From the IMG/VR virus record IMGVR_UViG_3300011979_000363, positions 24,775 through 88,774 of that record: DNA of 64,000 nt; one strand, written 5' to 3'. How positions within the stretch are numbered: the first letter of the stretch is position 1; every line of letters starts with the position of its first letter. The notes under the pieces were generated by a model. It worked only from the letters and a program-made list of their open reading frames with translations. It ran no database searches and was not told where the DNA came from. The position numbers were made by a program, and so were the translations under genes. Source of the stretch: a virus (Duplodnaviria; Caudoviricetes). Of the stretch, positions 15,415 through 32,661 are shown piece after piece.

Positions 15415-16752
15415 ATGCGTAAAAGAACTGAAAGCAACTCACATGGCAACTTTTTTAGTGATGATGCACTTATTGCATATTATAACATTGTAAAAAAGAC
15501 CATACAAGACTATACTGATGAGCTGATGCGCCGTTGCAGATATAAGAGCACCGTTAGCCAGACTGGGGACGGCACTATTATGGATGATCGCTCCAAACTT
15601 ATTGATTTGTATGATTCTTGTTATATTCAGAATGCAAGGCTTCAAAGTTGTTGTGAGACTTTGAATTCGCAGTTGACTGGTGAGCGCTATTCACTTGGTA
15701 GGATTAATGCTGATGGCAAGTTTGAACGTGATGAGGAAGAAAGTAAGAAGGCACAAGGGTTAGAGTTTGAAAAGCTTATTCAAGCTGCTATAGATGCAAA
15801 ACTCTTTGGTTATTCTCTTGTTGAGATTCTTCCAGACGTTTCTCCTGACACTGGACTCCTCAGAGAAGTAAATATTATCGAGCGTAGAAATGTCTTAGCC
15901 GACCAGAATCGTGTTGTACAACGACAAGGCATTTGGTCTCCAGGCTGGGATTTAGATGATGTTCAATTCAAGCATAACTATATTCTCATCAATACTGGTG
16001 GTTTTGGTTTGTTTGCTGCCACTACCCCATTGATTCTTGCTCAGAAGTTCGTCTTAGCCAATTGGGTTAACTTTGCCCACACCTATGGCCAACCCATCAT
16101 TCAAGGTAAGACTGTTGCTGAGGATGATGTAACCAGAAAGCGTTTGGCTTCTCAGATAGCTCGTGCTGCTACCAATAAAGTTATTGTCACTGGCAAGGAT
16201 GATGATATTGACATCAAGGCCTTCACCATGTCAAACTCTGAGAAAATATATGACAGTTTGATTGCATACGTCAACAAAGAGGTTTCCAACCTTGTGTTAG
16301 GTTCTGAAAGTATGGCCGGCGCTACTCAAAGTTATGTTGGTTCTACCAAGGCACATGAAGACATTTTCAGAGCAAGGGTTAAGAATTACCGCAAGTATAT
16401 TGAGAATGTTATGAATGAGAAAATCCTTCCAGTATTGAAATATTGGGGGTATCTCAGTCCCGATGTCGTTTTCAAGTACAACAACAAAGTAGACATGTCT
16501 AATGAGGACAAGATAAAAATCTTTGATGTTCTCACTGACAAGTATGAAGTTGATCCAGAGATCATTGATATGGAATGGGGTATTCATGTAGGCAAGCAGA
16601 TGAACCTTATGCAATATTCTTATGATGATAATGCTGATGGATTAGATGGCTCTGACAATGATCACCATATCATGTCCGATGAAGAGTATGAAAAACGATT
16701 CGGTCATCCCCGTGGTGTCAAAAACAAGATAAATTTTCTGTTGGGGAGGTAG
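15415..16752 (+). CDS. portal protein (DUF935 / Mu gp29-like)
   Basis: 445 aa, first gene of the head module; NWVNFAHTYGQP, VSNLVLG..M, STKAHEDIF, IENVMNEKILP patterns. Confidence 0.85.
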   Translation: MRKRTESNSHGNFFSDDALIAYYNIVKKTIQDYTDELMRRCRYKSTVSQTGDGTIMDDRSKLIDLYDSCYIQNARLQSCCETLNSQLTGERYSLGRINADGKFERDEEESKKAQGLEFEKLIQAAIDAKLFGYSLVEILPDVSPDTGLLREVNIIERRNVLADQNRVVQRQGIWSPGWDLDDVQFKHNYILINTGGFGLFAATTPLILAQKFVLANWVNFAHTYGQPIIQGKTVAEDDVTRKRLASQIARAATNKVIVTGKDDDIDIKAFTMSNSEKIYDSLIAYVNKEVSNLVLGSESMAGATQSYVGSTKAHEDIFRARVKNYRKYIENVMNEKILPVLKYWGYLSPDVVFKYNNKVDMSNEDKIKIFDVLTDKYEVDPEIIDMEWGIHVGKQMNLMQYSYDDNADGLDGSDNDHHIMSDEEYEKRFGHPRGVKNKINFLLGR

Positions 16753-16774
16753 TTCGTGGCGGCTACCTCTCCAA
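16731..16774 (+). other. predicted -1 ribosomal frameshift signal (portal to MuF)
   Basis: in-frame heptamer A AAT TTT (16731-37) followed by a 12-bp stem 16741-52/16763-74; the -1 frame is open into the MuF ORF. Confidence 0.65.
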
Positions 16775-16802
16775 ACAAATCATTGCCAGCGCCAAGGCTG
16801 AG

Positions 16803-17681
16803 ATGAGTGATGATGAGAAGACAAGACATCAGCAGGAGTATAACCAGCTGCTTGCCTTGTTTATAAATATCTTGAAAAATATTGAAAGCGATGACCGTGA
16901 TGACATTATATATGCTTTGATGGAACTTCGTGCTGATATTGCTATCCAGTATGGCTGTGATGGGTTTGGCATGGATGAAGAAGAAGCCTTACAATTGCTA
17001 AGAGAAACCAATGAGGATATTCTTTCTCCAGAGCAAAATGAAAAACGTAAGCGCATTATTGCGATGGTGGAAAACCTTATAGCTTTTGCTGTATGTGAGG
17101 AATACCATGTAGTAAAAGATACTTACAAAATTTATAAAAAACATAAGAAAGAAGATTCTGATTATGACATTGACTATAATGATCCAGATGATATAGACGA
17201 GTATACAGACATTAATGCTCTGTACAATGACCAGTATTCCAGTGTAGAAAATGCTGACATCATGTATGCTATGGGTATTGCTGCATGGTGGCTTGGGATG
17301 GATAAAAACGATCTGATTACTTATTGGACTATGAATGACGCAAAAGTTCGTCCTTGGCACATGGCACTTCAAGGCTATACCGCTCCAAGAGATGAATTTC
17401 CATCATGGATGATACCGCCTATCGAATGGAATTGTCGTTGCTTCTTACTTCCTGCTGAGAATGTCGATCCTTCACAGGTATGGGATAAAGCAGACTTTAA
17501 GCGTGTCGTTGGTAAAGTTCCCACTAAGCCTAAGCAGATAGATGATACTTTTTCTGAGAGTGTCGCCAAATGTGGACGGATCTTTGGGGAAACCCACAAC
17601 TATTTCAAAGTAGATAAGTCTGACAAAGATTTTCTTGATGATTGTGTTCAACGTATAAAAGCCAAGTATTATGCTTCGTAA
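16803..17681 (+). CDS. head morphogenesis protein, MuF / SPP1 gp7 family
   Basis: WTMNDAKVRPWH..LQG....PP.EWNCRC signature. Confidence 0.9.
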   Translation: MSDDEKTRHQQEYNQLLALFINILKNIESDDRDDIIYALMELRADIAIQYGCDGFGMDEEEALQLLRETNEDILSPEQNEKRKRIIAMVENLIAFAVCEEYHVVKDTYKIYKKHKKEDSDYDIDYNDPDDIDEYTDINALYNDQYSSVENADIMYAMGIAAWWLGMDKNDLITYWTMNDAKVRPWHMALQGYTAPRDEFPSWMIPPIEWNCRCFLLPAENVDPSQVWDKADFKRVVGKVPTKPKQIDDTFSESVAKCGRIFGETHNYFKVDKSDKDFLDDCVQRIKAKYYAS

Positions 17682-19547: not shown

Positions 19548-20819
19548 ATGGACAAGAAGCTCAAGTACATTAAAGGAGCGGTAGAAGCTGGAAAACCTGC
19601 TGACATCTATTTTTACACAGACGTAGATGGATGGAACGCTGACAATTTTATCTATGACTTCAATTATCTCATAAAGAGTAATGTTTCTAAGATAAACATT
19701 CATATCAATTCTTGCGGTGGTAGTATCGTAGACGGTATCAGTGTCTTCAGTAGGATTCTTGATTGCAAGATTCCGACAGCTTGCTATGATGATGGATTAG
19801 CTGCATCTATGGGGTCTATTATCTGGGCTGCTGGCAGTGAGGTGTATATGAAAGACTATGCTCTCCTTATGATCCATAATCCTTTTTATGATACCACAGA
19901 TCCTGATAACAAATACAATCAGATGACGGAGGCTTTCAAGCAGCAGCTTAGTATCATTTATCAGAAACGTTTCAACATGGATGAGGATCAAGTTAAGGCG
20001 TTGATGGATGGCGAGGGTGATAATGATATGACGTTTCTTACCGCCTCTCAGGCTGTAGAGAGAGGTTTTATCAGTCAAAGCCATGTTATTGAGACTCCGC
20101 AGGCTATCCGTGACAAAGTAGCTGCTGTCGTAAAGGACGGTTTTGACTTGGCTAAAATCCGCAATGTAATGAACAGCATTGCTATAATCCCAACAACAGA
20201 CACCCCAGTTGGGGGACAAGTAGACAAAGTTGAGAATAAACAAGATAATAAACACTTAATTCAGAATCAAATGAACGAGAACGAAATCACAGTATTTGCA
20301 GCTCTTCTTGGTATCAAGAATGCAAATGTAGAGAATGTTTCGGCAAAGATTACTGATCTTAAAGCGAAAGCAGAGATGGTTGATAAGCTGAAAAATTCTC
20401 TCGACTCTATGACAAAAGAGCGTGACACTCTTAAGACAGAGCTTGCTGGCAGTAAGGCTTCAGTGGCCAATCTTACCGCAGATCTTAAGACCGCCAATGA
20501 CAAACTGAAAGATTATCAGGATGCAGAGGCTAAGGCACAAGAGCAGCGTATTGATGCGCTTGTTGACAATGCCATTGCTCTTTGCAAGATTGATAAAGCA
20601 GATCGTGAGACATGGCGTGAGCAGGCCAAGAATAATTTTGACCTGACCAAGAAAGTACTTGATTCTATCCCAGGTCGTAAGGAGCTGAGCAAGGAGATCG
20701 CCCATGACGATAATGAGAAAGCTAAGGACGCTCTTAAGACTGAGGAGGAGAAGATGGAAGAGAAAGTCAACAAGGTTGTCGGCAACAAATTCAAATTCCA
20801 CACATTCGACGAGCTGTAA
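19548..20819 (+). CDS. ClpP-like prohead protease fused to a coiled-coil scaffold
   Basis: HINSCGGSI.DG, GLAASMGS (Ser), LMIHNP (His); C-terminal helical region. Confidence 0.92.
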   Translation: MDKKLKYIKGAVEAGKPADIYFYTDVDGWNADNFIYDFNYLIKSNVSKINIHINSCGGSIVDGISVFSRILDCKIPTACYDDGLAASMGSIIWAAGSEVYMKDYALLMIHNPFYDTTDPDNKYNQMTEAFKQQLSIIYQKRFNMDEDQVKALMDGEGDNDMTFLTASQAVERGFISQSHVIETPQAIRDKVAAVVKDGFDLAKIRNVMNSIAIIPTTDTPVGGQVDKVENKQDNKHLIQNQMNENEITVFAALLGIKNANVENVSAKITDLKAKAEMVDKLKNSLDSMTKERDTLKTELAGSKASVANLTADLKTANDKLKDYQDAEAKAQEQRIDALVDNAIALCKIDKADRETWREQAKNNFDLTKKVLDSIPGRKELSKEIAHDDNEKAKDALKTEEEKMEEKVNKVVGNKFKFHTFDEL

Positions 20820-22264: not shown

Positions 22265-23641
22265 ATGGCTAAAACAAGATTGGGTGGTGTTTTTACCACC
22301 GACATAGACGGAGGCATTCAGAGTACTTCTCTTATCAGTACTGAGAACGTTTGTGGTCTTATTTTTGACACTAAGATTGTAGGTGGATTTGCCAAAGCTT
22401 TTGCTGATGGCAGTACGGCCGCTAAGAACTTTGCCAATGGTAATGTCGTGGAGCTTAATACTGTTAAGGACGTTGATGCTGCTGGCATTGATGATAAGGT
22501 AATGGCTGGTCTTCCGCTTTACCACCTTAACATGTTCTTTAAGCTTACGGGCGGTGATGTGCGCCTTTTCGTTGCATTCATGGATTCTACAACGGACACT
22601 CAGTTTGAAGCAATTGAAAAGATGCAGCTTGCGGCTAACGGCATTATCTATCAGATTGGTGTCTGGACTGGTGAGCCTATCGCTACTCTCGATGAGGGAT
22701 CCAAGGCACTTAAAGTTGCTGATGACAGTCTTATTTCAAAGCTTGAATCTCAGGCAGAGGTTCTTGGTGGTAAGATTGGCGTAACCAACTATGAGGGCAA
22801 TGCTCCAGTCAATATTCTCCTGAATGCACCTATTGCTAATCAGGCTGTTATTGACTATAAGGCTCTTCCAGATATTAGCAATCTGAATGCGCCTAAGGTC
22901 TCTGTACTTATTGGTCAGGCTGCTACAGATACGGTACATGCCCTTCAGTTGGCTGTCAATAATGTAGCAGACACTGGTGGATACGCTATTGTCGGTAATA
23001 TCGGGGCTGCTCTTGCATGTCTCTCTATCGCTCCGGCTAATGAGAGCATTGCCCATGTTGCAAGCTTCAACCTTTCGGCCGCTATGACAGAGGCAGAGCT
23101 TGGTTTTGGCAACCTTACTCAGAATGAAAAGAAGTGGGCTGACGGCGTGAGCTTCAACAATATCAAGACGATTGGTTATCTTAAGCGTAATCAGTATCTC
23201 CATCAGAAGGGTTACATTTTCCTGACCAACTACGATGGCTTGGAGAACAGCATTTTCTTCTCTTCTGATCAGACCCTTACTGATGGTGACTATCGTACCA
23301 TTGCCCGTTGCCGAGTGATGCATAAGAGCCGTCGAGTGGTTCGTCAGGCACTGTTGCCTTATGTAAACAATGATGTTGAGGTAGATACCACTACTGGTTA
23401 TATCTCTGCCTCTGCCATCACTGCTTACCGCAATGTTGTTTATGACGCACTCGACACCAATATGGTAGAGCCTGGCACGACTAAACCTCAGATCAGTGGC
23501 CGTGTTTGTGAGATTGATCCTGCCCAGAAGATTTTGGAGAATGATGAGTTCCATATCAGCTACTCACTCGTTCCTCGTGGTCTCACGTCCGCAATCTTTG
23601 TCACGGAGGGCTTCACGTCCACGATTGCCTCTCAGTCATAA
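22265..23641 (+). CDS. contractile tail sheath protein 1 (DUF2586-like)
   Basis: 458 aa preceding the tube gene; KGYIFL..Y.G..NSIFFS.D and RVMHKSRRVVRQALLP. Confidence 0.8.
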   Translation: MAKTRLGGVFTTDIDGGIQSTSLISTENVCGLIFDTKIVGGFAKAFADGSTAAKNFANGNVVELNTVKDVDAAGIDDKVMAGLPLYHLNMFFKLTGGDVRLFVAFMDSTTDTQFEAIEKMQLAANGIIYQIGVWTGEPIATLDEGSKALKVADDSLISKLESQAEVLGGKIGVTNYEGNAPVNILLNAPIANQAVIDYKALPDISNLNAPKVSVLIGQAATDTVHALQLAVNNVADTGGYAIVGNIGAALACLSIAPANESIAHVASFNLSAAMTEAELGFGNLTQNEKKWADGVSFNNIKTIGYLKRNQYLHQKGYIFLTNYDGLENSIFFSSDQTLTDGDYRTIARCRVMHKSRRVVRQALLPYVNNDVEVDTTTGYISASAITAYRNVVYDALDTNMVEPGTTKPQISGRVCEIDPAQKILENDEFHISYSLVPRGLTSAIFVTEGFTSTIASQS

Positions 23642-24313: not shown

Positions 24314-24814
24314 ATGGAACAAGTTTTGAATCCGACAAACGGCGTACAGCCAGAGCAGAACGCAAGTAAGCCTACGACTGGCGGTATAAATTTCTCAAAC
24401 CTCTCAGAAGCTGATAATGCTTCTAAGACACTCGCTAATGACAATGCAGAAATTCAGTCAGATGGTGTTGAGCTTTCTGATGATGTCCGTGCTGCTATTT
24501 CTCAGAAGATTGCTTCTCTTAAGGCTGAGAAGAAAGTCAAGCGAGTGTTCGTTATCGTAGTGCAGGGCGATACTGAGGTAGGTGAGCTTCCTTATTACAT
24601 TGGCTATTTCCGTCGTCCCAATCTTATGGAGTTCTCTCAGTACATGAGCTTTATCCAGAAGGACGCAGTGCAGGCCAATCAGATGTTGGCTACTCAGATT
24701 TTCCTTGATGGCAATCGTGAGCTTGTTGACGATCAGGATATTTTCTTGTACGGCACTATGCAGCAGCTTGGCCACGTCATTGATACACGTAATACGGAGC
24801 TGGTAAAAAAATAG
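24314..24814 (+). CDS. tail assembly chaperone (G-like)
   Basis: 166 aa after the tube gene; ends GTA AAA AAA TAG. Confidence 0.75.
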   Translation: MEQVLNPTNGVQPEQNASKPTTGGINFSNLSEADNASKTLANDNAEIQSDGVELSDDVRAAISQKIASLKAEKKVKRVFVIVVQGDTEVGELPYYIGYFRRPNLMEFSQYMSFIQKDAVQANQMLATQIFLDGNRELVDDQDIFLYGTMQQLGHVIDTRNTELVKK

Positions 24815-25089: not shown

Positions 25090-26379
25090 ATGTCACAAGT
25101 AGGATTAGGTTACATTACCACTAATACTTTCAGTCCACAAAACGTCAACTTCCTGCTCCCAATGGATGAGAGCGTATGTGGTATGTTGTTCGATTTATCG
25201 GGATTCAACAAACCATTTGAAGATTATTATGCTGTCAGACAATTCTTTGGCAATGGTGAGACACAATGCGTTCACAACATGGAAGAAGCTGAGAATTGTG
25301 GTTTGTGGAAGAATGATTTTATGAATGGTGTTCCTTATTATCATGTCAAAGCATTCTATGATTATGTAGGCAAAGACACGCCACTATACATTAAGTTTGC
25401 AGACTGTAGTAAGAATTTCGATGCCATTGAAGAAATGCAGTCGCAGGCCAATGGCAAAATGTTCCAGATTGGCGTATGGACAGCCCAACCATTATGGACT
25501 ATAGTTAATGGAAAGGCCATGGTATTTTCTGATCTATGCTCCAATGTTGAGATAGCCGCAGAGCTGTTAACTGGCAAGATTGGAGGGCAGCAAGCAAGCA
25601 GCACTCATATTTCTCCAGCCAGTGTTTTACTTTGCCCCAATACTTACTTCAAAAATGCAGGGCTGACATTGTTCAATGTTCCAAACGGCTTAACACTCAA
25701 TATGCCAAAGCTGTCAGTATGCTTAGTGCAAGATGGTACGGATGAGGTACACACTATGCAATTGAAGAATCCAAACCATGCTCCAGTAGGCTGTTTAGGC
25801 ATTCTTATGGCTTGTTGTTGCTTGGCTTATGCTGAGGAAAGCATTGGCTACGTTGCTAAGTTCAACCTCAATAAGAATGACCAGTTTGATAAAGCTGAGG
25901 TATGGTTCGGTGAGGGGGCTATCAGTGTTAAGAGCATGAATTATGCTAAGAACTATGCTGCGAGCAAAGGTTATATCGTGCCCACTGAATATAACGGGAA
26001 AGAAGCAGAAGTGTTTTTTGCCGGCGACCCTACATTCAGTAAAGGAGACTATTATAGTCTTTCCAATAATCGTATTATGCATAAGGTAAGAAGAGCTGTT
26101 CAAAGCGCCTTGTTACCATATATTAATGGTAATTTAGAGATTGATCCATCTACAGGAATGCTTTCAGCAACCTCCAACACTATTCTTACACAAGCTGTCA
26201 TATCTATGCTTGATACGGCTATGGTGAATGTAGATCATCAATCCCAGTTGGCTGGCAGATCCGTATCGTTTGGGAATAGTTATGATATTTTGAACACTGA
26301 TGAGATAAGTATGACTCTCAGCGTTCAGCCAGTCAATTATAGTAATGTGATCAATGAGAAAGATAGCATAAACTTCTAA
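25090..26379 (+). CDS. second sheath-like paralogue (DUF2586-like)
   Basis: colinear motifs shared with 22265-23641: CGMLFD, F.AIE.MQ..ANG...QIGVWT..P, KGYI...Y.G, R.MHK.RR.V..ALLPY.N. Confidence 0.8.
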   Translation: MSQVGLGYITTNTFSPQNVNFLLPMDESVCGMLFDLSGFNKPFEDYYAVRQFFGNGETQCVHNMEEAENCGLWKNDFMNGVPYYHVKAFYDYVGKDTPLYIKFADCSKNFDAIEEMQSQANGKMFQIGVWTAQPLWTIVNGKAMVFSDLCSNVEIAAELLTGKIGGQQASSTHISPASVLLCPNTYFKNAGLTLFNVPNGLTLNMPKLSVCLVQDGTDEVHTMQLKNPNHAPVGCLGILMACCCLAYAEESIGYVAKFNLNKNDQFDKAEVWFGEGAISVKSMNYAKNYAASKGYIVPTEYNGKEAEVFFAGDPTFSKGDYYSLSNNRIMHKVRRAVQSALLPYINGNLEIDPSTGMLSATSNTILTQAVISMLDTAMVNVDHQSQLAGRSVSFGNSYDILNTDEISMTLSVQPVNYSNVINEKDSINF

Positions 26380-26400: not shown

Positions 26401-29400
26401 ATGGCAGATACCAAAATTTACAGGGTAGAGTATCAGATTGCGGCTAATGATGCAGCTTCTGCTGTCTTTGAGAAGATGGCGAGGGCAGCTAAAAATTCAG
26501 TTGCACCAATTAACAGCATGCTTACTGGAATAGGAAATTTCAGTCAGCAAGTTGCAAAGATTAATGAGAATGATAGTCTTAAGAATTTGATGGCTCTTAA
26601 ACCTCAGTTTAATGAAACTGAGTGGAAGAAGTCATTGGACAGTCTTATCACTATCGCAAGAAATAAGGCAACAGAGCTTAAAGGAACATTCTCCAAGCCT
26701 CTTCAAGACCTTATCCCCAAAGAAGGTGGTTCAAAAGCTTTTAACGACCTTAAGAAGCAATATGATGATCTTACTAAGAGCTTTAATGAGTTTAAGAAAG
26801 CTGCTTCGAAGCCTGTTTTAGGTACTACTACATCAGGCATTGCCAGTCAGGTTAAGACAGAGACAGATGCTCTTAAGAAGTTAGAGCAGGAACAAGAATC
26901 GCTTATAGCTAAGAGAGAGGACATCAATAAGCGATATGCCAATGCTAAAGCAGAATATGCAAAAGCAGTAGGTGCATTTAACAGCAAGGCTGGGAAACTG
27001 TCTCCGCAATTTGGTCTTGTATCTAAAGACCCGACTCTTTATAGCGCACAAACAAAGGGCGATTGGGAGCCACTTTTCCAAAACGCTACTAAGGCAAAGG
27101 AAGAGTTCACATCCTTGCTCAAACAGAAAAAAGAGGTTGATGAAGCTATTGAAAAGGCTAACAAAAATCTTATCAACGCCAGAAAAGAAGCTGAAAGTGG
27201 GGGTGGTAAATCTTCACCAGCCATTGCAGCTTCAACGGGGAAATCTGCCGCTAAAACAGTTGAAGCTACCACCTCAGTAGAAGAAATTAATAAGCGCACT
27301 GCCGCTCTCAATAATTTATTAGAGACAGTAAACAAGCTGAAAAGTCAGTTCAAATTTACGGCTGATATTAATACGGCTCCAGCTATAGCAAAGATTAACG
27401 ACTTGCTGCATCTGGTTCGTGATAATGCCGTGACCATTCCTATCACTTTTGGAGGTACTGGTATCAATCCCCGAAAGGCTATTGATGAGGCTACTGGGAA
27501 AATTTCTGAGGAAGGAAGAAGAGCTGCCGACGAAGCCAACAGTATTATTAATCAAGGTAAAAACAGAAGTAAGAAGCAGGTCAAATCCAGTGAGCCTACT
27601 CTGATTCAACGTATTCAGGATCAAATTGCTGAGGTCCAAAAGACAATGCCTACTATTCCGCTTAAATTCTCTGTGAGCGATGGTGGATCATTGCAGACGA
27701 AAGTCAATGAGATCGTCAAGTCCATTAAGCCTGCTCCAATCAAAGTAGATGTCATTCCAGTCAACGCTACTAAGAGCGCTGAGGGACTTAAGAATGTTCC
27801 TAAGAAGACTAAGGGCGGTGAAAGTTTAGGTAAGATAACCAAGAACATATCTGAGGAATATTCCAGACTTCAAAAATACGCTAATGAGAAGCCGATCATC
27901 GTTCGTAGTATTTTCAATGGTTCACAAGCTCAGTTTGACTTAAGCGTTCTCATTCATCGCTTACAGAAATATGCAAATGAACTGCCAGTCATTGCTCGTA
28001 GCGTGTTCAATGGAAGTGAGGCTAAGTTTAATCTGAGTCTCACCTTACATGAGCTGCAACGATATGCTGAGAGTTATCCAGTTGTTATATCTACAAAGCT
28101 GGCTAATCCAAAGACAGACATCAATAAACTATTGTCAAATAAGCAGAAGTATGATGTTCCTGTTAATGTCAAACTTAAGGCTATTGGAATTTCTAAAGCA
28201 AGTATTAACAAGCTTATTCCAAAGGATAAAAAATATGACATTCCAGTCAACGTTAAGTTTAACTCGACAACTGCCGCTAAGCGTTTTAATACTCTTATTA
28301 AGAATATCAAGGGCAAAGCTGCAATTGAAGTCAAGCTTAAGGTTAATACAAATGGCATAGCCAAAAAAGTAAGGGATTCTATAAAGAATATCAAGACTGA
28401 GATACCACTTAAACTTACTTCTAAAGGAGCTTCATCCAGTCTTAATAAAGTATTATTAAGACTTCAAGAAATAGCCAACAAAAAGCCTATTGTCATAAAG
28501 ACAGAGCTTAATTCAGGTAAAGCTATAGAAGGTCTTACCACCACTATTGAGCGGTTGCAGCGTGCCGTTAACAACCTCAATAAAAATGCTGCTTTACAGA
28601 CCCAGAACAGAATGGCTAAGATGGCGGCTTCAGAAGAGCCTGCCGTTGTTACACCAGTACAGAGACGGGTCAATGAGTTTGTTGCTGGGGGTGGTAGTAA
28701 GATATATGGCAAAGGATCCAATGCCGACTATTATACCAGACTTCGTGCTTGGGCTTATCCGTTCACTGGTAATACATCATTTGGCGCGACGACTCCTGCA
28801 GCCCTTAGCATGATGAAAGACATGGGTAGCATGATGGCCGTTGGTAGTTTCATGGGCGCTATTGGCAGTGGCCTGCATCAGGCTATTGACTATCAGAACA
28901 CCATGAAGACAGTCCAAGCCATTTTGCAGACCTCAGATGACCATTACAATATCGGTGCATTCAACAATATGCAACGTATTGTAAGAAATGTCGGTAAGGA
29001 AACTAAGTTCACTGCTCCTCAGGTTGCTGGTGCTGCACGCTTTATGGCTATGGCTGGATTGAACACAAGGGATATTTCCAATGCTATCCGTCCAGTTGCC
29101 GATGTAGCCTTGATCGGTGACACAGACCTTGCTACTACTGCTGACAAGCTTACCAATGTGATGACTACGTTTGGTTTGAAGTCCAGTCAGATGCGTACTA
29201 TTGCCGATATTATGACCTCTACGTTCACAAGGTCAAATACCGACATGATGATGCTTGCTGAGAGTGCCAAATACGCTGGTGGTATCGCTCACTTGTATGG
29301 TGGCAAGGACTTTATGAAGACCTTCTCAGACACAATGGCCATGTTTGGTGTGCTTGGTAACTCAGGTATTCAAGCATCGTCAGCTGGTACAACCATTCGT

Positions 29401-32400
29401 ATGATGTATCAGAACTTGATGCAGCCCAACAAGAACCAGCGTGAAACATTGCAGAAGTACGGTATCTATACTCGTGACAAGAATGGTCAGCCATTGCAGA
29501 TGGTAGATATTCTTAAAGAGTTGGCAGCTAAGGTTCCCCGTGATCAGATGGCTGATGCAGTTGGTAAGATGTTCCGTATCACTGCCCAGCCTGGTGCAGC
29601 AGCATTGGCTACCCATATCTATGACCTTGTTGGTAATCCTGCTACTGGTAAAAAAGGTCTGATAGAAGCTAACCGAGAGGCTATGGGTACTGATGTGTCA
29701 GGACATATTGCCGACCAGAAGAAGATGACCCTTTCCGGCCTTATGTATCAAGTTCAGTCAGCTTTTGGAGAGGGAATTTTACAAGCTGTTGAAGGTAGGC
29801 AAAAACAGTGGGCAGACTTACTGAAACGGCTTACTAAGTTCATTTCCAGTCCACAAACTATAGAGGGATTAAGTAAGATTGTAGACTTGGTGGAATATTT
29901 GGGTAAGACCATGCTTGGCTTTGTCAAGATTTGGGTTAAGGGATATACCATGTTTCCGAACTTTATCAATAGCTTGTTAAAAGCCCAAATGATCTTTACC
30001 CAGATAGGTTATCTCTTTACTCCTTTCGTGCAGATGGTAGGAACGCTCAGAACGCTACTTACCATGATACCCGGTGTAAAAAGAATAGGAGGCGGAGCTG
30101 GAGTAAGTTCTCTACTTGGTGTAGGAGCATTATCAACTGGTGGGGCTATTGCATATTCAAATAATGGCGGTCGTTATACAGAAGGAGAACGAGCTATGTT
30201 TGCCATGATGGGGGCACAAGCAACTACTCCTACTGCTGAACTTTTGGCTGCAAAAGATAAGAAATGGCGTTATGAAGTGGCACGTGACCGTTTGAGAAAT
30301 TCGGTTATGTATCATGGTGAGCGTACTGCCGTCTCTCCATTATGGTATGCTCCTATGGCTCAGTTTGGCATAAACAAAGATGAAAATCCTGCTGAGTGGA
30401 AGAAGAGTTATGTAGATAGTAGACAATGGATGAAGGAACGCAGCATGTTTGCAGCTACCAATATAGAAGCACGTCAAGCTGCTGCACGGAGAGCACAAGA
30501 AAGTGTTGAGCGTCAACAAAGCATTATCAATGCTGAGCGTGCTAAGATGGCGGAGATGCAAAGTAAACGTTTTGCTTTGATGCGTTCTATGAGACGACCT
30601 GCTCAGCTTGCCAATGTTGAATTGATGGCCAGATATGCTAATATGGCTGGAGACACAGCATTGGTAGCATCTGTCATGCCTGATTTCAAGAGTAAAGCAC
30701 TTAGAGATTCCAGTTTCGCTAAGCGATTAGTGATGAGCGGAAATAAGAATTTCGCTAAGATTGGCTGGAGTGCTGCATTCAAAGGAAGTCTTGAAAGAGG
30801 TTTCAATGCTGGCTCTGTTGGTTTTATCAATGGGATTAAACGGATGTTTACGTCCGCCGGTTCACTGATTAAGAATTTTGCATTTACTCTACTCAGAGGG
30901 TTGTCTACCGCTATTGGTTTCCTTGTCAGTCCAATAGGATTAGCCACTACTGCATTGGTTGGCCTTACTGCCGCAGGCGTTTATTTCTACAATAAAGTCA
31001 AGAAATGGAAAGAGCAAACCATTAATAACGCCAATGACTACGGAAAGACAATAATCAATAATGCCAGAAAGCAGAAGCAACACCTTGACAACATCACTGG
31101 AAGGAATAATCTGCCTAATTTCCAAGGTGGTTCAATTGATGATAATGGTAGCACAATCGCTGGAGGAAGTTCTCGCAAAGCAAAGTTAGTAGCCATTAAA
31201 GACATTAATTGGGAAAAAGCTAATAAGGCTCAGACTCAAGTTGATAAAATTTTCCAAAACAATATATTCGGCTTTAGCAATGGCTTGGAGAAATATCGCA
31301 ATATGAAGCCAAAATCTACATATAACAGTGTAGACGATCTTTCATCCAGAGGCGGTGCATTTACATTATGGTATCATTTGTTTGGCGGTGAAAAAGATGT
31401 GCGTGAGAAAGAAAACACTGATGCTGCCGCTAATCGTGAGCGTAATAATCTTATTGTTAAAGGTGCTAATGCTCCTGAGACTATTAAAGCCCAAAATGAG
31501 ATCATAGCTCTCCGTAAGAAATATATTGCTGGACAAATTAATTATGCTTCTTTCCAGAAAAAAGCTGAGAAGATCATCAATTCAGCTATTAACACGAAAG
31601 GCGCATTAAATGCAGACAATTATTCGTTTGGTGAGATTAGACGGTCAAATCCTAAGCGTTTCATCCAGTATCAAAAGAGTGCATTGAATGTACTTCAAGC
31701 TGAACTGAAGGGAGATGCAGGAACATTGAGTGGCTATTATGACGCTCAAGCAGCACTTCGTAAGGGTATTCCAGCGTTTACGAGTAAATGGACAAGTGCT
31801 ATCAGGCGTTTGCTTGGTGGTATGACATTTGAACTTCAGACTGCCACGAAAACTGTCCATATAACTATGAACACACTGCCTAATGGTAAGTTTGATTTTA
31901 ACAACATTCTCGCTCAGATACGTCAGAAAGTTGCTGGCTTCAAGGGTACTATTGTTAATTTTGCGAAGATGGTTGCTAATGTATATAGCTACCTTGCGAG
32001 CAATGGCTTTATTGGTAAGTATTATAAAGACGCACGTAAGTATGTTTATGACCAAATCAAAAACAGGTCTATTTCTTATGGGGAAGCTGCTGCTTATTTT
32101 GATAAAAATATAGGAAAAGGCAATGGAAGAGCTACATGGAATGGAATGAATCGCCATCAATATGCAACTTATGTGTCTTCTGGAAAAAATAACAAGGCTG
32201 CTAAGGAGCGTGTGAGGATTCGTAAAAACACTGCTGATGCAGCTGTTGATCCGATTGTAGCAAATTTGAAGAGGCAACAAGCGCAAGCAAAAGCTTTAGC
32301 GTCATCAGCTAACAATGCTGTAACACCTAAAGGTGGTAGCGGTAAAGGTGGTAAAGCGACTGGCAATGGAGGCACTGGCGGAACTGGTGGTGGCTCTGGA

Positions 32401-32661
32401 ACAGGCGGAGGCTCTGGTGCTGGAAATGGTAACAATCAGAAAGATTATGCTTCTACTTATGACAGAGGTGCTGCACGTCCTACGCAGGTCAATATTACTA
32501 TAGATAGTCTTTGCAGATTTGATCGTACTATGATTGCTAAGAATGCTGATGAGAAAGAGATAATAGAAATGATAGAAAACAAACTTGGAGAGGCAATCTC
32601 TATGTTGGCTTCATCAGCCTTGAATACAGCTGGGACGGTAATTCAACAAGGATTGAACTAA
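26401..32661 (+). CDS. tail tape measure protein
   Basis: 2086 aa; TP901-like core (TKFTAPQVAGAARFMAMAGL...TLF/MFGVLGNSGIQASSAGT); Gly-rich linker near the C-terminus. Confidence 0.92.
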   Translation: MADTKIYRVEYQIAANDAASAVFEKMARAAKNSVAPINSMLTGIGNFSQQVAKINENDSLKNLMALKPQFNETEWKKSLDSLITIARNKATELKGTFSKPLQDLIPKEGGSKAFNDLKKQYDDLTKSFNEFKKAASKPVLGTTTSGIASQVKTETDALKKLEQEQESLIAKREDINKRYANAKAEYAKAVGAFNSKAGKLSPQFGLVSKDPTLYSAQTKGDWEPLFQNATKAKEEFTSLLKQKKEVDEAIEKANKNLINARKEAESGGGKSSPAIAASTGKSAAKTVEATTSVEEINKRTAALNNLLETVNKLKSQFKFTADINTAPAIAKINDLLHLVRDNAVTIPITFGGTGINPRKAIDEATGKISEEGRRAADEANSIINQGKNRSKKQVKSSEPTLIQRIQDQIAEVQKTMPTIPLKFSVSDGGSLQTKVNEIVKSIKPAPIKVDVIPVNATKSAEGLKNVPKKTKGGESLGKITKNISEEYSRLQKYANEKPIIVRSIFNGSQAQFDLSVLIHRLQKYANELPVIARSVFNGSEAKFNLSLTLHELQRYAESYPVVISTKLANPKTDINKLLSNKQKYDVPVNVKLKAIGISKASINKLIPKDKKYDIPVNVKFNSTTAAKRFNTLIKNIKGKAAIEVKLKVNTNGIAKKVRDSIKNIKTEIPLKLTSKGASSSLNKVLLRLQEIANKKPIVIKTELNSGKAIEGLTTTIERLQRAVNNLNKNAALQTQNRMAKMAASEEPAVVTPVQRRVNEFVAGGGSKIYGKGSNADYYTRLRAWAYPFTGNTSFGATTPAALSMMKDMGSMMAVGSFMGAIGSGLHQAIDYQNTMKTVQAILQTSDDHYNIGAFNNMQRIVRNVGKETKFTAPQVAGAARFMAMAGLNTRDISNAIRPVADVALIGDTDLATTADKLTNVMTTFGLKSSQMRTIADIMTSTFTRSNTDMMMLAESAKYAGGIAHLYGGKDFMKTFSDTMAMFGVLGNSGIQASSAGTTIRMMYQNLMQPNKNQRETLQKYGIYTRDKNGQPLQMVDILKELAAKVPRDQMADAVGKMFRITAQPGAAALATHIYDLVGNPATGKKGLIEANREAMGTDVSGHIADQKKMTLSGLMYQVQSAFGEGILQAVEGRQKQWADLLKRLTKFISSPQTIEGLSKIVDLVEYLGKTMLGFVKIWVKGYTMFPNFINSLLKAQMIFTQIGYLFTPFVQMVGTLRTLLTMIPGVKRIGGGAGVSSLLGVGALSTGGAIAYSNNGGRYTEGERAMFAMMGAQATTPTAELLAAKDKKWRYEVARDRLRNSVMYHGERTAVSPLWYAPMAQFGINKDENPAEWKKSYVDSRQWMKERSMFAATNIEARQAAARRAQESVERQQSIINAERAKMAEMQSKRFALMRSMRRPAQLANVELMARYANMAGDTALVASVMPDFKSKALRDSSFAKRLVMSGNKNFAKIGWSAAFKGSLERGFNAGSVGFINGIKRMFTSAGSLIKNFAFTLLRGLSTAIGFLVSPIGLATTALVGLTAAGVYFYNKVKKWKEQTINNANDYGKTIINNARKQKQHLDNITGRNNLPNFQGGSIDDNGSTIAGGSSRKAKLVAIKDINWEKANKAQTQVDKIFQNNIFGFSNGLEKYRNMKPKSTYNSVDDLSSRGGAFTLWYHLFGGEKDVREKENTDAAANRERNNLIVKGANAPETIKAQNEIIALRKKYIAGQINYASFQKKAEKIINSAINTKGALNADNYSFGEIRRSNPKRFIQYQKSALNVLQAELKGDAGTLSGYYDAQAALRKGIPAFTSKWTSAIRRLLGGMTFELQTATKTVHITMNTLPNGKFDFNNILAQIRQKVAGFKGTIVNFAKMVANVYSYLASNGFIGKYYKDARKYVYDQIKNRSISYGEAAAYFDKNIGKGNGRATWNGMNRHQYATYVSSGKNNKAAKERVRIRKNTADAAVDPIVANLKRQQAQAKALASSANNAVTPKGGSGKGGKATGNGGTGGTGGGSGTGGGSGAGNGNNQKDYASTYDRGAARPTQVNITIDSLCRFDRTMIAKNADEKEIIEMIENKLGEAISMLASSALNTAGTVIQQGLN

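Follow-up and report, generated by a model that had tools for sequence, protein, structure and literature searches.

The tail assembly chaperone pair G/GT is reportedly produced by a −1 frameshift in lambda and in most long-tailed phages, as Xu, Hendrix and Duda are said to have described in 2004. The lambda G/GT site works largely without a strong 3′ hairpin. In the retroviral and totiviral Gag-Pol systems of eukaryotes, a heptamer and a downstream structure allow a minority of the assembling protein to carry a C-terminal passenger, an enzyme polyprotein, into the particle, where it can be released by a protease. In phage SPP1, the portal protein gp6 and the MuF-family protein gp7 are separate polypeptides that bind non-covalently, and a few copies of the latter enter the procapsid via the portal. 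The bacterial frameshift signals of dnaX (tau/gamma) and of the insertion sequences IS3 and IS911 (OrfAB) consist of an X_XXY_YYZ heptamer that is followed, after a short spacer, by a stem-loop or pseudoknot on its 3′ side (accessible part of PMC4066793). Covalent portal–MuF proteins are encoded as single genes by Microbacterium phages of subclusters EA3, EA5 and EA8 and of cluster EB (accessible part of PMC7302621), and the accessible part of the Hardycor1 paper gives separate portal and muf genes and the family link 'MuF (SPP1 gp7)'. Here we analyse the junction between the portal and MuF genes in a 64,000-nt stretch of a Caudoviricetes genome (IMG/VR record IMGVR_UViG_3300011979_000363, positions 24,775 to 88,774), which we call the window and which comes from a gut Bacteroidales phage. 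Comparison of the sequences with those of relatives makes it very probable that the portal gene ends in a programmed −1 ribosomal frameshift site, which yields a portal–MuF extension beside the plain portal.

The predicted event resembles G/GT in that a −1 shift in a structural module would yield a short and a C-terminally extended product in a fixed ratio from overlapping open reading frames (ORFs), and in being recognizable by position and frame conservation rather than by sequence. It differs in the genes concerned, portal and MuF in place of tail chaperones, and in that the extension is a whole, independently folding virion protein; unlike in lambda, a covarying hairpin is part of the signal. 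As in Gag-Pol, a heptamer and a downstream structure would let a minority of the assembling protein take a protease-releasable C-terminal passenger into the particle, whereas the anchor here is the portal and the processing is a proposal. Because this anchor is a 12-mer and not a shell protein, only about 1–3 copies could be loaded per particle. With dnaX and the IS3-type elements the locus shares the type of heptamer, the short spacer and the 3′ structure, and IS3 likewise fuses two ORFs; the heptamer, however, is A_AAU_UUU where theirs is A_AAA_AAG, nothing that resembles an upstream Shine-Dalgarno stimulator is evident at the junction, the host belongs to the Bacteroidales, and the shift would extend the product where that of dnaX truncates it. 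The single-ORF fusions contain the same two domains in the same order, with lengths of 783–790 aa in the four that we retrieved (P0121–P0124) compared with the predicted 755, and their existence means that a covalent portal–MuF protein is viable. In those fusions every portal subunit carries MuF unless they recode, whereas both a plain portal and a fusion are predicted here. The likeness to SPP1 lies in the few MuF-family copies that would reach the procapsid via the portal; unlike in SPP1, the link would be covalent and made during translation.

Probable frameshift signal at the end of the portal gene

The portal gene matches Portal_Mu (PF06074) in a profile search (E 4e-43, 148.5 bits against a cut-off of 23.9, profile positions 2–335 of 336). 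Its 3′ end reads ...AAG ATA AAT TTT CTG TTG GGG AGG TAG, as an earlier, sequence-only reading of the window had claimed, and contains the X_XXY_YYZ heptamer A AAT TTT in the upstream (0) frame, exactly where that reading had placed it (Table 1). The −1 frame is free of stops from 16692 to 17681 (−58 to +929 relative to the portal stop), which bears out the further claim that it is open through the MuF ORF, and after a slip it would read SVGEVVRGGYLSKQIIASAKAE-MSDDEK. Between 16692 and the ATG at 16803, this open stretch contains no ATG, GTG or TTG. The window has no single uninterrupted portal–MuF frame: the TAG at 16750–16752 closes the portal frame, and MuF lies in −1. The predicted length of about 755 aa for a fusion made beside the 445-aa portal agrees with the length computed from the sequence (441 + 314 = 755 aa).

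Folding of the RNA between 16725 and 16810 paired 16739–16754 with 16761–16777 through 16 pairs and one bulge, with a minimum free energy of −31.9 kcal/mol (z −3.73); 1 of 200 shuffled sequences folded equally well. This fold contains the stem that the sequence-only reading had drawn (16741–16752 with 16763–16774), and the portal stop is buried in its 5′ arm, as proposed. The core that is conserved among relatives consists of 11 bp (16743–16753 with 16762–16772) and an 8-nt loop (16754–16761), which in the window is extended by U–A pairs at 16741–16742/16773–16774 and, past a bulge, by 16739–16740/16776–16777. An open 22-codon spacer is by itself common and unremarkable, and since the heptamer alone occurs at chance frequency, the significance of the signal in the window comes from the comparison with relatives.

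In contigs from four DNA runs, one of them possibly the source of the window, no indels were found at 16651–17200, and indels were confined to 16624–16650. This second interval encodes an acidic stretch near the portal C terminus, the only place with insertions in contigs of related phages from other gut metagenomes, and the insertions of each contig sum to whole codons. Another small ORF was also noted within the hairpin. A GGAGG motif (16745–16749) lies 6 nt ahead of a portal-frame GTG at 16756, from which 16 codons run to a TGA at 16804–16806 that overlaps the MuF start codon as ATGA. This ORF may be due to chance, or it could provide some translational coupling to the MuF ATG.

Conservation of the slip site and of the −1 frame

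A search for portal homologues returned 1,307 at E ≤ 1e-10; among the 120 matches listed, most are 440–450 aa long (about 445; range 390–487). In an alignment of 34 of these homologues (A1), Asn440 and Phe441 are invariant. Viral contig loci were collected with A1 (best 80 of 398 confirmed; a single portal as the query gave one locus), and 73 further loci were taken from species-representative genomes. The genome loci come almost entirely from Bacteroidales, including Bacteroides, Phocaeicola, Alistipes, Prevotella, Segatella, Muribaculaceae, Dysgonomonas, Butyricimonas and others; a few metagenome bins carry Firmicutes-type labels, which we take to be binning errors. Against a phage collection, blastn of the window region gave two short weak matches and tblastn gave one cultured relative, Bacteroides phage BS-TP1 (PQ571274.1). 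In all, 156 sources were compared (L001–L155 and the window, with L001 and L038 being the same contig), two of which lack the portal 3′ end. The relatives, mostly Bacteroidales prophages, are 50–80% identical in the portal, and an ungapped alignment (A2) comprises 47 distinct junction sequences.

Of the 154 sources with a portal end, 132 combine a T_TTT that is in frame within the last portal codons with a −1 frame that is open from this site through MuF. We call these loci coupled, and the other 22 uncoupled. The open frame has at least 250 codons in 127 of the coupled loci, is cut by the end of the locus in four and has 155 codons in one (L046); all three elements, namely the slip site, the hairpin and the open −1 MuF frame, are kept in 132 of 154 sources. 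Among the 57 distinct junctions of the viral set and the window, the stretch from the portal stop to the conserved MuF helix has no stop in 1,555 codons of the −1 frame, compared with 65 stops in 1,612 codons of the 0 (portal) frame and 165 in 1,612 of the +1 frame. The linker varies among clades in both length and sequence, and its length changes by whole codons only.

The bases of the slip site are conserved at synonymous positions. The Phe codon is TTT in 57 of 57 junctions, partly by construction as the sites were located by T_TTT, and the codon ahead of it is AAT in 49, TCT in seven and GAT in one. Every slip-site Asn codon is thus AAT (49 of 49), and the codon before AAT ends in A in 48 of 49 junctions through four different codons, ATA, GTA, GCA and ACA, which specify four amino acids. 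In the rest of the same portals, TTT accounts for 362 of 778 Phe codons (47%), AAT for 812 of 1,655 Asn codons (49%) and A-ending codons for 20–25% of those four amino acids. Among 82 scored distinct junctions, 75 contain AAATTTT and seven NTCTTTT. The first −1 codon after the slip varies (Ser, Tyr, Phe or Leu), so the protein of the MuF frame does not constrain the final T of the heptamer either. In relatives the portal stop lies 15–24 nt past the first base of the TTT codon and may be any of the three stops (TAA 46, TAG 25, TGA 11). A_AA.U_UU.U belongs to the class H_HH.U_UU.Y, which ranks with the most efficient classes of heptamer when tested in E. coli (accessible part of PMC4066793). Conservation of the heptamer and of the open −1 frame in related portal–MuF pairs, which the sequence-only reading had named as a check, is therefore what the comparison found, with T_TTT and the open frame kept in the same 132 sources.

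Covariation of the hairpin

A hairpin of about 8–14 bp folds in all 57 distinct junctions (ΔG −11.5 to −27.8 kcal/mol) and, in the folds of single sequences, most often starts 5 nt after the TTT (range 0–6). Across 83 distinct coupled junctions the mean z is −2.62 relative to 55-nt windows inside the same portal gene, and the median ΔG is −18.4. The sequences of the stem differ between clades, and RNAalifold on the 47 ungapped sequences found double changes at 7 of 9 pairs. For the 11-bp helix named above, 81.8% of cells are paired, compared with 64.7% after shuffling and 43–53% when the helix is slid along the alignment. The helix has 98 double-change cells where 40 are expected, and its covariation score of 0.58 (0.30 in shuffled alignments) was reached in none of 500 shuffles. 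The stem, whose conservation had likewise been put forward as a check, is present in all 57 distinct relatives, and it covaries.

A covariance model was built from the viral loci and run on the 73 independent genome loci (415 kb, both strands, E ≤ 0.01). It gave 37 hits in these loci, all of them on the plus strand at the portal 3′ end, and no hit in the 18 uncoupled genome loci. In the independent genome set, 84.7% of cells are paired, 9 of 11 pairs show double changes and the covariation score is 0.62 compared with 0.31 after shuffling; the alignment of this set was fitted to the model, which favours the structure in these figures.

Start codons of MuF and the cultured phage BS-TP1

A pattern search placed the MuF helix motif in 82 of 98 distinct coupled junctions and left the other 16 unscored. 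Ahead of the helix, 41 of the 82 junctions have an ATG, 18 have only a GTG or TTG and 23 have none of the three. The Met of 'MSDDEK', conserved in the closest subclade of the window, is not conserved beyond it: Ile is found in L002 and Leu in L009 and L010, and whole clades lack the Met. The first ATG comes 131–173 nt past the slip site in L023, L027, L028, L032, L033, L035 and L037, 239 nt past it in L040–L045, 356 nt in L049–L056, 380 nt in L058 and 479 nt in L063 and L066. In these late-ATG clades, the conserved helix (EYxxLLALF-like) and the residues that precede it are encoded upstream of the first ATG. A MuF start inside the portal gene is impossible in 13 of 82 sources, whose −1 frame becomes open just 25 nt ahead of the portal stop, one to three codons before the slip codons. 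For many relatives, these sequences suggest that the shift would be the only route to full-length MuF; in the subclade of the window, free MuF may also be made from ATG 16803. A second, smaller hairpin is predicted to form immediately ahead of and across the MuF ATG both in the window (16780–16806) and in L001 (4353–4380; 67% portal identity), and it would occlude that start codon.

BS-TP1, a phage of B. salyersiae (PQ571274.1, 111.7 kb), agrees with the window in the order of the genes around the portal. Its junction reads ACT AAA AAT TTT CTT CGG GAG AGG GGG CAG TAG, and the −1 frame from the slip site to the annotated MuF stop consists of 303 codons without interruption. The MuF homologue, annotated as 'Mu protein F like domain protein', has its annotated start at an internal ATG 45 codons past the site, and a 113-nt unannotated gap follows the portal stop (L155, 4245–4379). 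A hairpin of 10 bp begins 4 nt after the heptamer (ΔG −19.3). The accessible part of the paper reporting this phage (PMC12694917) contains neither the word 'frameshift' nor mass spectrometry.

Uncoupled relatives as natural controls

Relatives without the heptamer, or with stops in their −1 frame, do exist, and the sequence-only reading had regarded such homologues as evidence against a frameshift. They are, however, exactly those in which MuF has its own ATG or has been lost, so that they do not refute a frameshift in the sense intended. Uncoupled loci fall into two types. The first (L100, L104, L109–L112, L121, L144, L145 and L151, the last on a long branch) comprises loci in which a separate ATG for MuF lies at the portal stop or no more than about 10 nt away from it, with MuF in the +1 or 0 frame. 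The portals of this type keep Asn-Phe (Asn-Tyr in L121), encoded as AAT TTC, AAC TTC, AAC TTT or AAC TAT; AAC or TTC is used in eight of eight uncoupled loci with Asn-Phe outside L151, which is taken up below, and the ninth has Asn-Tyr (AAC TAT). Their −1 frames close within about 20–300 nt, and none of the nine that were folded, out of the ten, has a hairpin (ΔG 0 to −10.4, z +0.65 to +2.29).

In the second type (L070, L071, L077, L081, L089, L090, L093–L098 and L153), mostly prophages of Alistipes, Butyricimonas and Rikenellaceae, MuF has been lost. A tblastn search with the window MuF gave no match in 10 distinct loci of this type. Their portals stop ahead of the Asn-Phe tail, ending in ...GVKQTDTNP or ...MRENR, and the next gene follows directly. 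This neighbour, of 193 aa, shows a weak similarity (E 0.011) to the C-terminal part of the gene that comes after MuF in the window. In a FastTree phylogeny of 117 distinct portal cores, from which the last 25 residues, rows shorter than 380 aa and duplicate cores had been dropped, both types nest inside coupled clades and at least five state changes are needed, three of them forced by well-supported branches; without a fixed root, the tree does not formally separate gain from loss.

Evidence against a frameshift and alternative explanations

Several observations weigh against a programmed frameshift at this junction. The relatives share descent, and the counts given above are not counts of independent events. 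In the window AAATTTT occurs 33 times where 31.5 are expected, which is the level of chance, and extension of the helix can cut the spacer to 1–3 nt. The ATG at 16803 is conserved, so the window phage does not strictly need the shift to make MuF. Eight junctions have heptamers that are non-canonical for a tandem slip (TCT_TTT in seven, GAT_TTT in one); only tRNA-Phe can re-pair at these sites, and hence the mechanism or its efficiency may differ. For the same reason, the rank of U_UU.U as the third most shift-prone tetramer with a downstream pseudoknot in E. coli is relevant to the TCT_TTT subgroup, and all the efficiencies cited here are those of E. coli, not of Bacteroidales (accessible part of PMC4066793). 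The weakest hairpins (L061, L075, L080 and L125) have z values of −0.33 to −0.84, or about −0.4 to −0.75 relative to the 55-nt portal windows, barely beyond background, and that of BS-TP1 reaches only −1.59 relative to shuffles. Of 53 coupled genome loci, 16 gave no hit with the covariance model at its threshold. Finally, L151 keeps AAT TTT although it is uncoupled and its −1 frame is closed.

The portal and MuF could instead be two ordinary genes, with MuF made by independent initiation only (at ATG 16803 in the window and at GTG, TTG or rarer starts in relatives), the heptamer a consequence of Asn-Phe conservation and the hairpin an element of mRNA stability or processing. The window ATG, with its Met kept in the closest subclade, fits such an arrangement, as do the ATG ahead of the helix in 41 of 82 junctions and the GTG or TTG in 18 more, and start sites are hard to exclude because Bacteroidales are not known to need a Shine-Dalgarno sequence. 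We nevertheless regard it as very unlikely, since 23 of the 82 junctions have no canonical start before the helix and the position of the start, where there is one, is not conserved. It would also have to accommodate AAT TTT and the preceding A, which are synonymous choices lost exactly where MuF has an adjacent ATG, together with a MuF that is always in −1 behind a stop-free spacer, uncoupled relatives without the hairpin and a region before the ATG that is predicted to be folded. Alternatively, after terminating at the end of the portal gene, ribosomes could be held by the hairpin and restart on MuF, and the position of the stop within the conserved hairpin, 15–24 nt past the first base of TTT, and the tight linkage of the two genes agree with this. 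Such reinitiation, however, needs a start near the stop, whereas the window has its ATG 50 nt past the stop and in many relatives the first start codon is 100–480 nt distant or missing; with the conserved T_TTT, the A before AAT and the stop-free −1 frame also left unexplained, it is hardly credible.

An RNA polymerase that added one U on the T run would give the same fusion protein from an edited mRNA, and the T run is invariant. Yet the run is only A3 T4 (T4 or T5 in relatives), where known slippage sites need about seven or more bases. Tandem tRNA slippage, by contrast, is typified by features present here, a conserved A located three bases ahead of the T run and a hairpin spaced to meet the ribosome entrance, and transcriptional slippage is exceedingly unlikely. 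The frame relation could also be a functionless relic of an ancestral single portal–MuF ORF that was split by a 1-base deletion, an idea to which the single-ORF fusions of distant relatives lend some colour. We give it next to no weight in view of the 1,555 stop-free codons, the whole-codon indels, the synonymous slip bases and the hairpin that covaries at 50–80% portal identity, as well as a MuF protein that is itself well conserved (23 invariant columns in 69 sequences). Each of these explanations is disfavoured because it fails to account for at least two of the synonymous slip bases, the stop-free spacer, the missing starts and the correlated loss in uncoupled loci.

Other candidates were tried and rejected. 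Stop reassignment or readthrough of the TAG leads in the 0 frame to the TGA at 16804–16806, and relatives use all three stops. For a MuF start within the portal gene, there is no ATG, GTG or TTG in the open −1 stretch that begins at 16692, and the frame is closed until shortly ahead of the slip site in 13 of 82 sources. An assembly error in the T run was discarded as the same run is present in all 47 distinct A2 sequences.

Proposed mechanism and its implications

In a programmed −1 frameshift, most ribosomes would pass A AAU UUU without leaving the portal frame, open the hairpin and terminate at the UAG at 16750, producing the 445-aa portal. In a minority, the hairpin 4–5 nt downstream, lying at the mRNA entrance, would cause a pause while AAU UUU is occupied by tRNA-Asn and tRNA-Phe, and the two tRNAs would slip in tandem by −1, tRNA-Asn from AAU to AAA and tRNA-Phe from UUU to UUU. 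Translation would continue in the −1 frame through the 22 linker codons and the whole MuF ORF to yield the 755-aa portal–MuF protein. Fused subunits could then co-assemble with plain portal subunits, so that a few MuF domains, in a number that depends on how often the shift occurs, would come to lie on the C-terminal face of the portal, inside the capsid. There MuF might stay tethered or be cut off by the head protease. The signal, its synonymous conservation, the covariation of the stem, the obligatory open frame and the missing MuF starts are computed from the sequences; the occurrence and rate of shifting, the co-assembly of fused with plain subunits, the location of MuF inside the capsid at the portal crown and its possible processing are inferred.

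More tentatively, it is quite possible that portal–MuF frameshifting is a third, ancient and widespread recoding module, after those of the tail chaperone and of some capsid genes. The portal would serve as a Gag-like anchor and the shift rate would set the load of MuF in each capsid, as it would that of enzymes or toxins fused to MuF in other lineages; the shift would be the sole route to MuF in many Bacteroidales phages, and the head protease would free MuF for ejection with the DNA.

No published description of a frameshift at the portal–MuF junction was found in the searchable literature outside subscription journals and supplements. The accessible part of a 2016 review (PMC5009743) does not contain 'portal', 'MuF' or 'head morphogenesis', that of the PRFect paper (PMC10885494) mentions MuF only as a fusion with VIP2 toxins, and that of a 2025 preprint (10.1101/2025.10.02.679949) does not contain 'portal'. 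The mechanism and the fused architecture are each known, and their combination at this junction appears to be undescribed in print. If true, the frameshift would be a conserved recoding event at a junction outside the searchable frameshifting literature, and it would explain how a minor head protein is delivered in a fixed small number to the portal vertex, an open point for proteins of the MuF/gp7 type. It would also correct a systematic annotation error, in which gene callers truncate MuF in relatives without a start codon, BS-TP1 being an example. As an inducible phage of Bacteroides salyersiae, BS-TP1 would moreover offer a testable system and, with it, access to −1 frameshifting in Bacteroidales, a group that initiates translation differently from E. 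coli.

The MuF protein, single-ORF fusions and neighbouring genes

The match of the MuF ORF to Phage_Mu_F (PF04233) scores 31.9 bits against a cut-off of 29.6 and covers only profile positions 67–111 of 112. An AlphaFold model of the −1-frame product of the window, made with 68 relatives, has a pLDDT of 91 and a pTM of 0.89, and only residues 1–9 are disordered. The model has a helix at residues 13–21, upstream of Met23 (block pLDDT 79 for residues 11–20 and 94 for residues 21–30), and the stretch before the ATG is accordingly predicted by the model to be part of the MuF fold. The top five matches of the model in BFVD are 'phage head morphogenesis domain' proteins (E 9.5e-8 to 2.2e-5, TM 0.52–0.67, the best over about 300 columns), and a Foldseek search of the PDB with the same model gave no match at E ≤ 0.001.

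All four single-ORF proteins (P0121–P0124) match PF06074, and a PF04233 hit is recorded for two of them. P0121 is collinear with the window portal (35% identity, E 1e-65) and with the C-terminal half of MuF (27%, E 2e-13); with P0121 as the query, the search for related loci gave no locus.

Table 1. Coordinates of the portal–MuF junction and of neighbouring features in the window.
Feature	Position	Strand	Description
Portal gene, 0 frame	15415–16752	+	445 aa; ORF list and profile match; product of non-shifting ribosomes
Slippery heptamer A_AAT_TTT	16731–16737	+	Portal frame; last base of Ile439 and Asn440-Phe441
Spacer from heptamer to family stem	16738–16742	+	5 nt in the family register (ungapped alignment A2)
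3′ stimulatory hairpin (predicted)	16739–16777	+	13–16 bp; RNA fold and covariation
Portal stop codon TAG	16750–16752	+	Within the 5′ arm of the hairpin
Linker read in the −1 frame only	16737–16802	+	22 codons, SVGEVVRGGYLSKQIIASAKAE; no start codon; linker and first predicted MuF helix
Predicted trans-frame product	15415–16737, base 16737 reread, −1 frame to 17678	+	441 + 314 = 755 aa; deduced from its parts
MuF ORF from ATG	16803–17681	+	292 aa; −1 relative to portal; PF04233
Head maturation protease, ClpP-like, with C-terminal scaffold-like part	19548–20819	+	CLP_protease PF00574 E 1.8e-19; PHROG head maturation protease E 9e-42
Two DUF2586 proteins	22265–23641 and 25090–26379
2086-aa ORF, PhageMin_Tail domain	26401–32661		Presumably tape measure

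No tRNA genes were found in the 64-kb window. The ClpP-like head protease is encoded 1.9 kb downstream of MuF and is a candidate for cutting MuF off the portal. Among the lower-ranking BFVD matches of the MuF model is A0A6J5N077 (rank 43), an 817-aa 'portal protein' of an uncultured phage, which is probably another single-ORF portal–MuF fusion.

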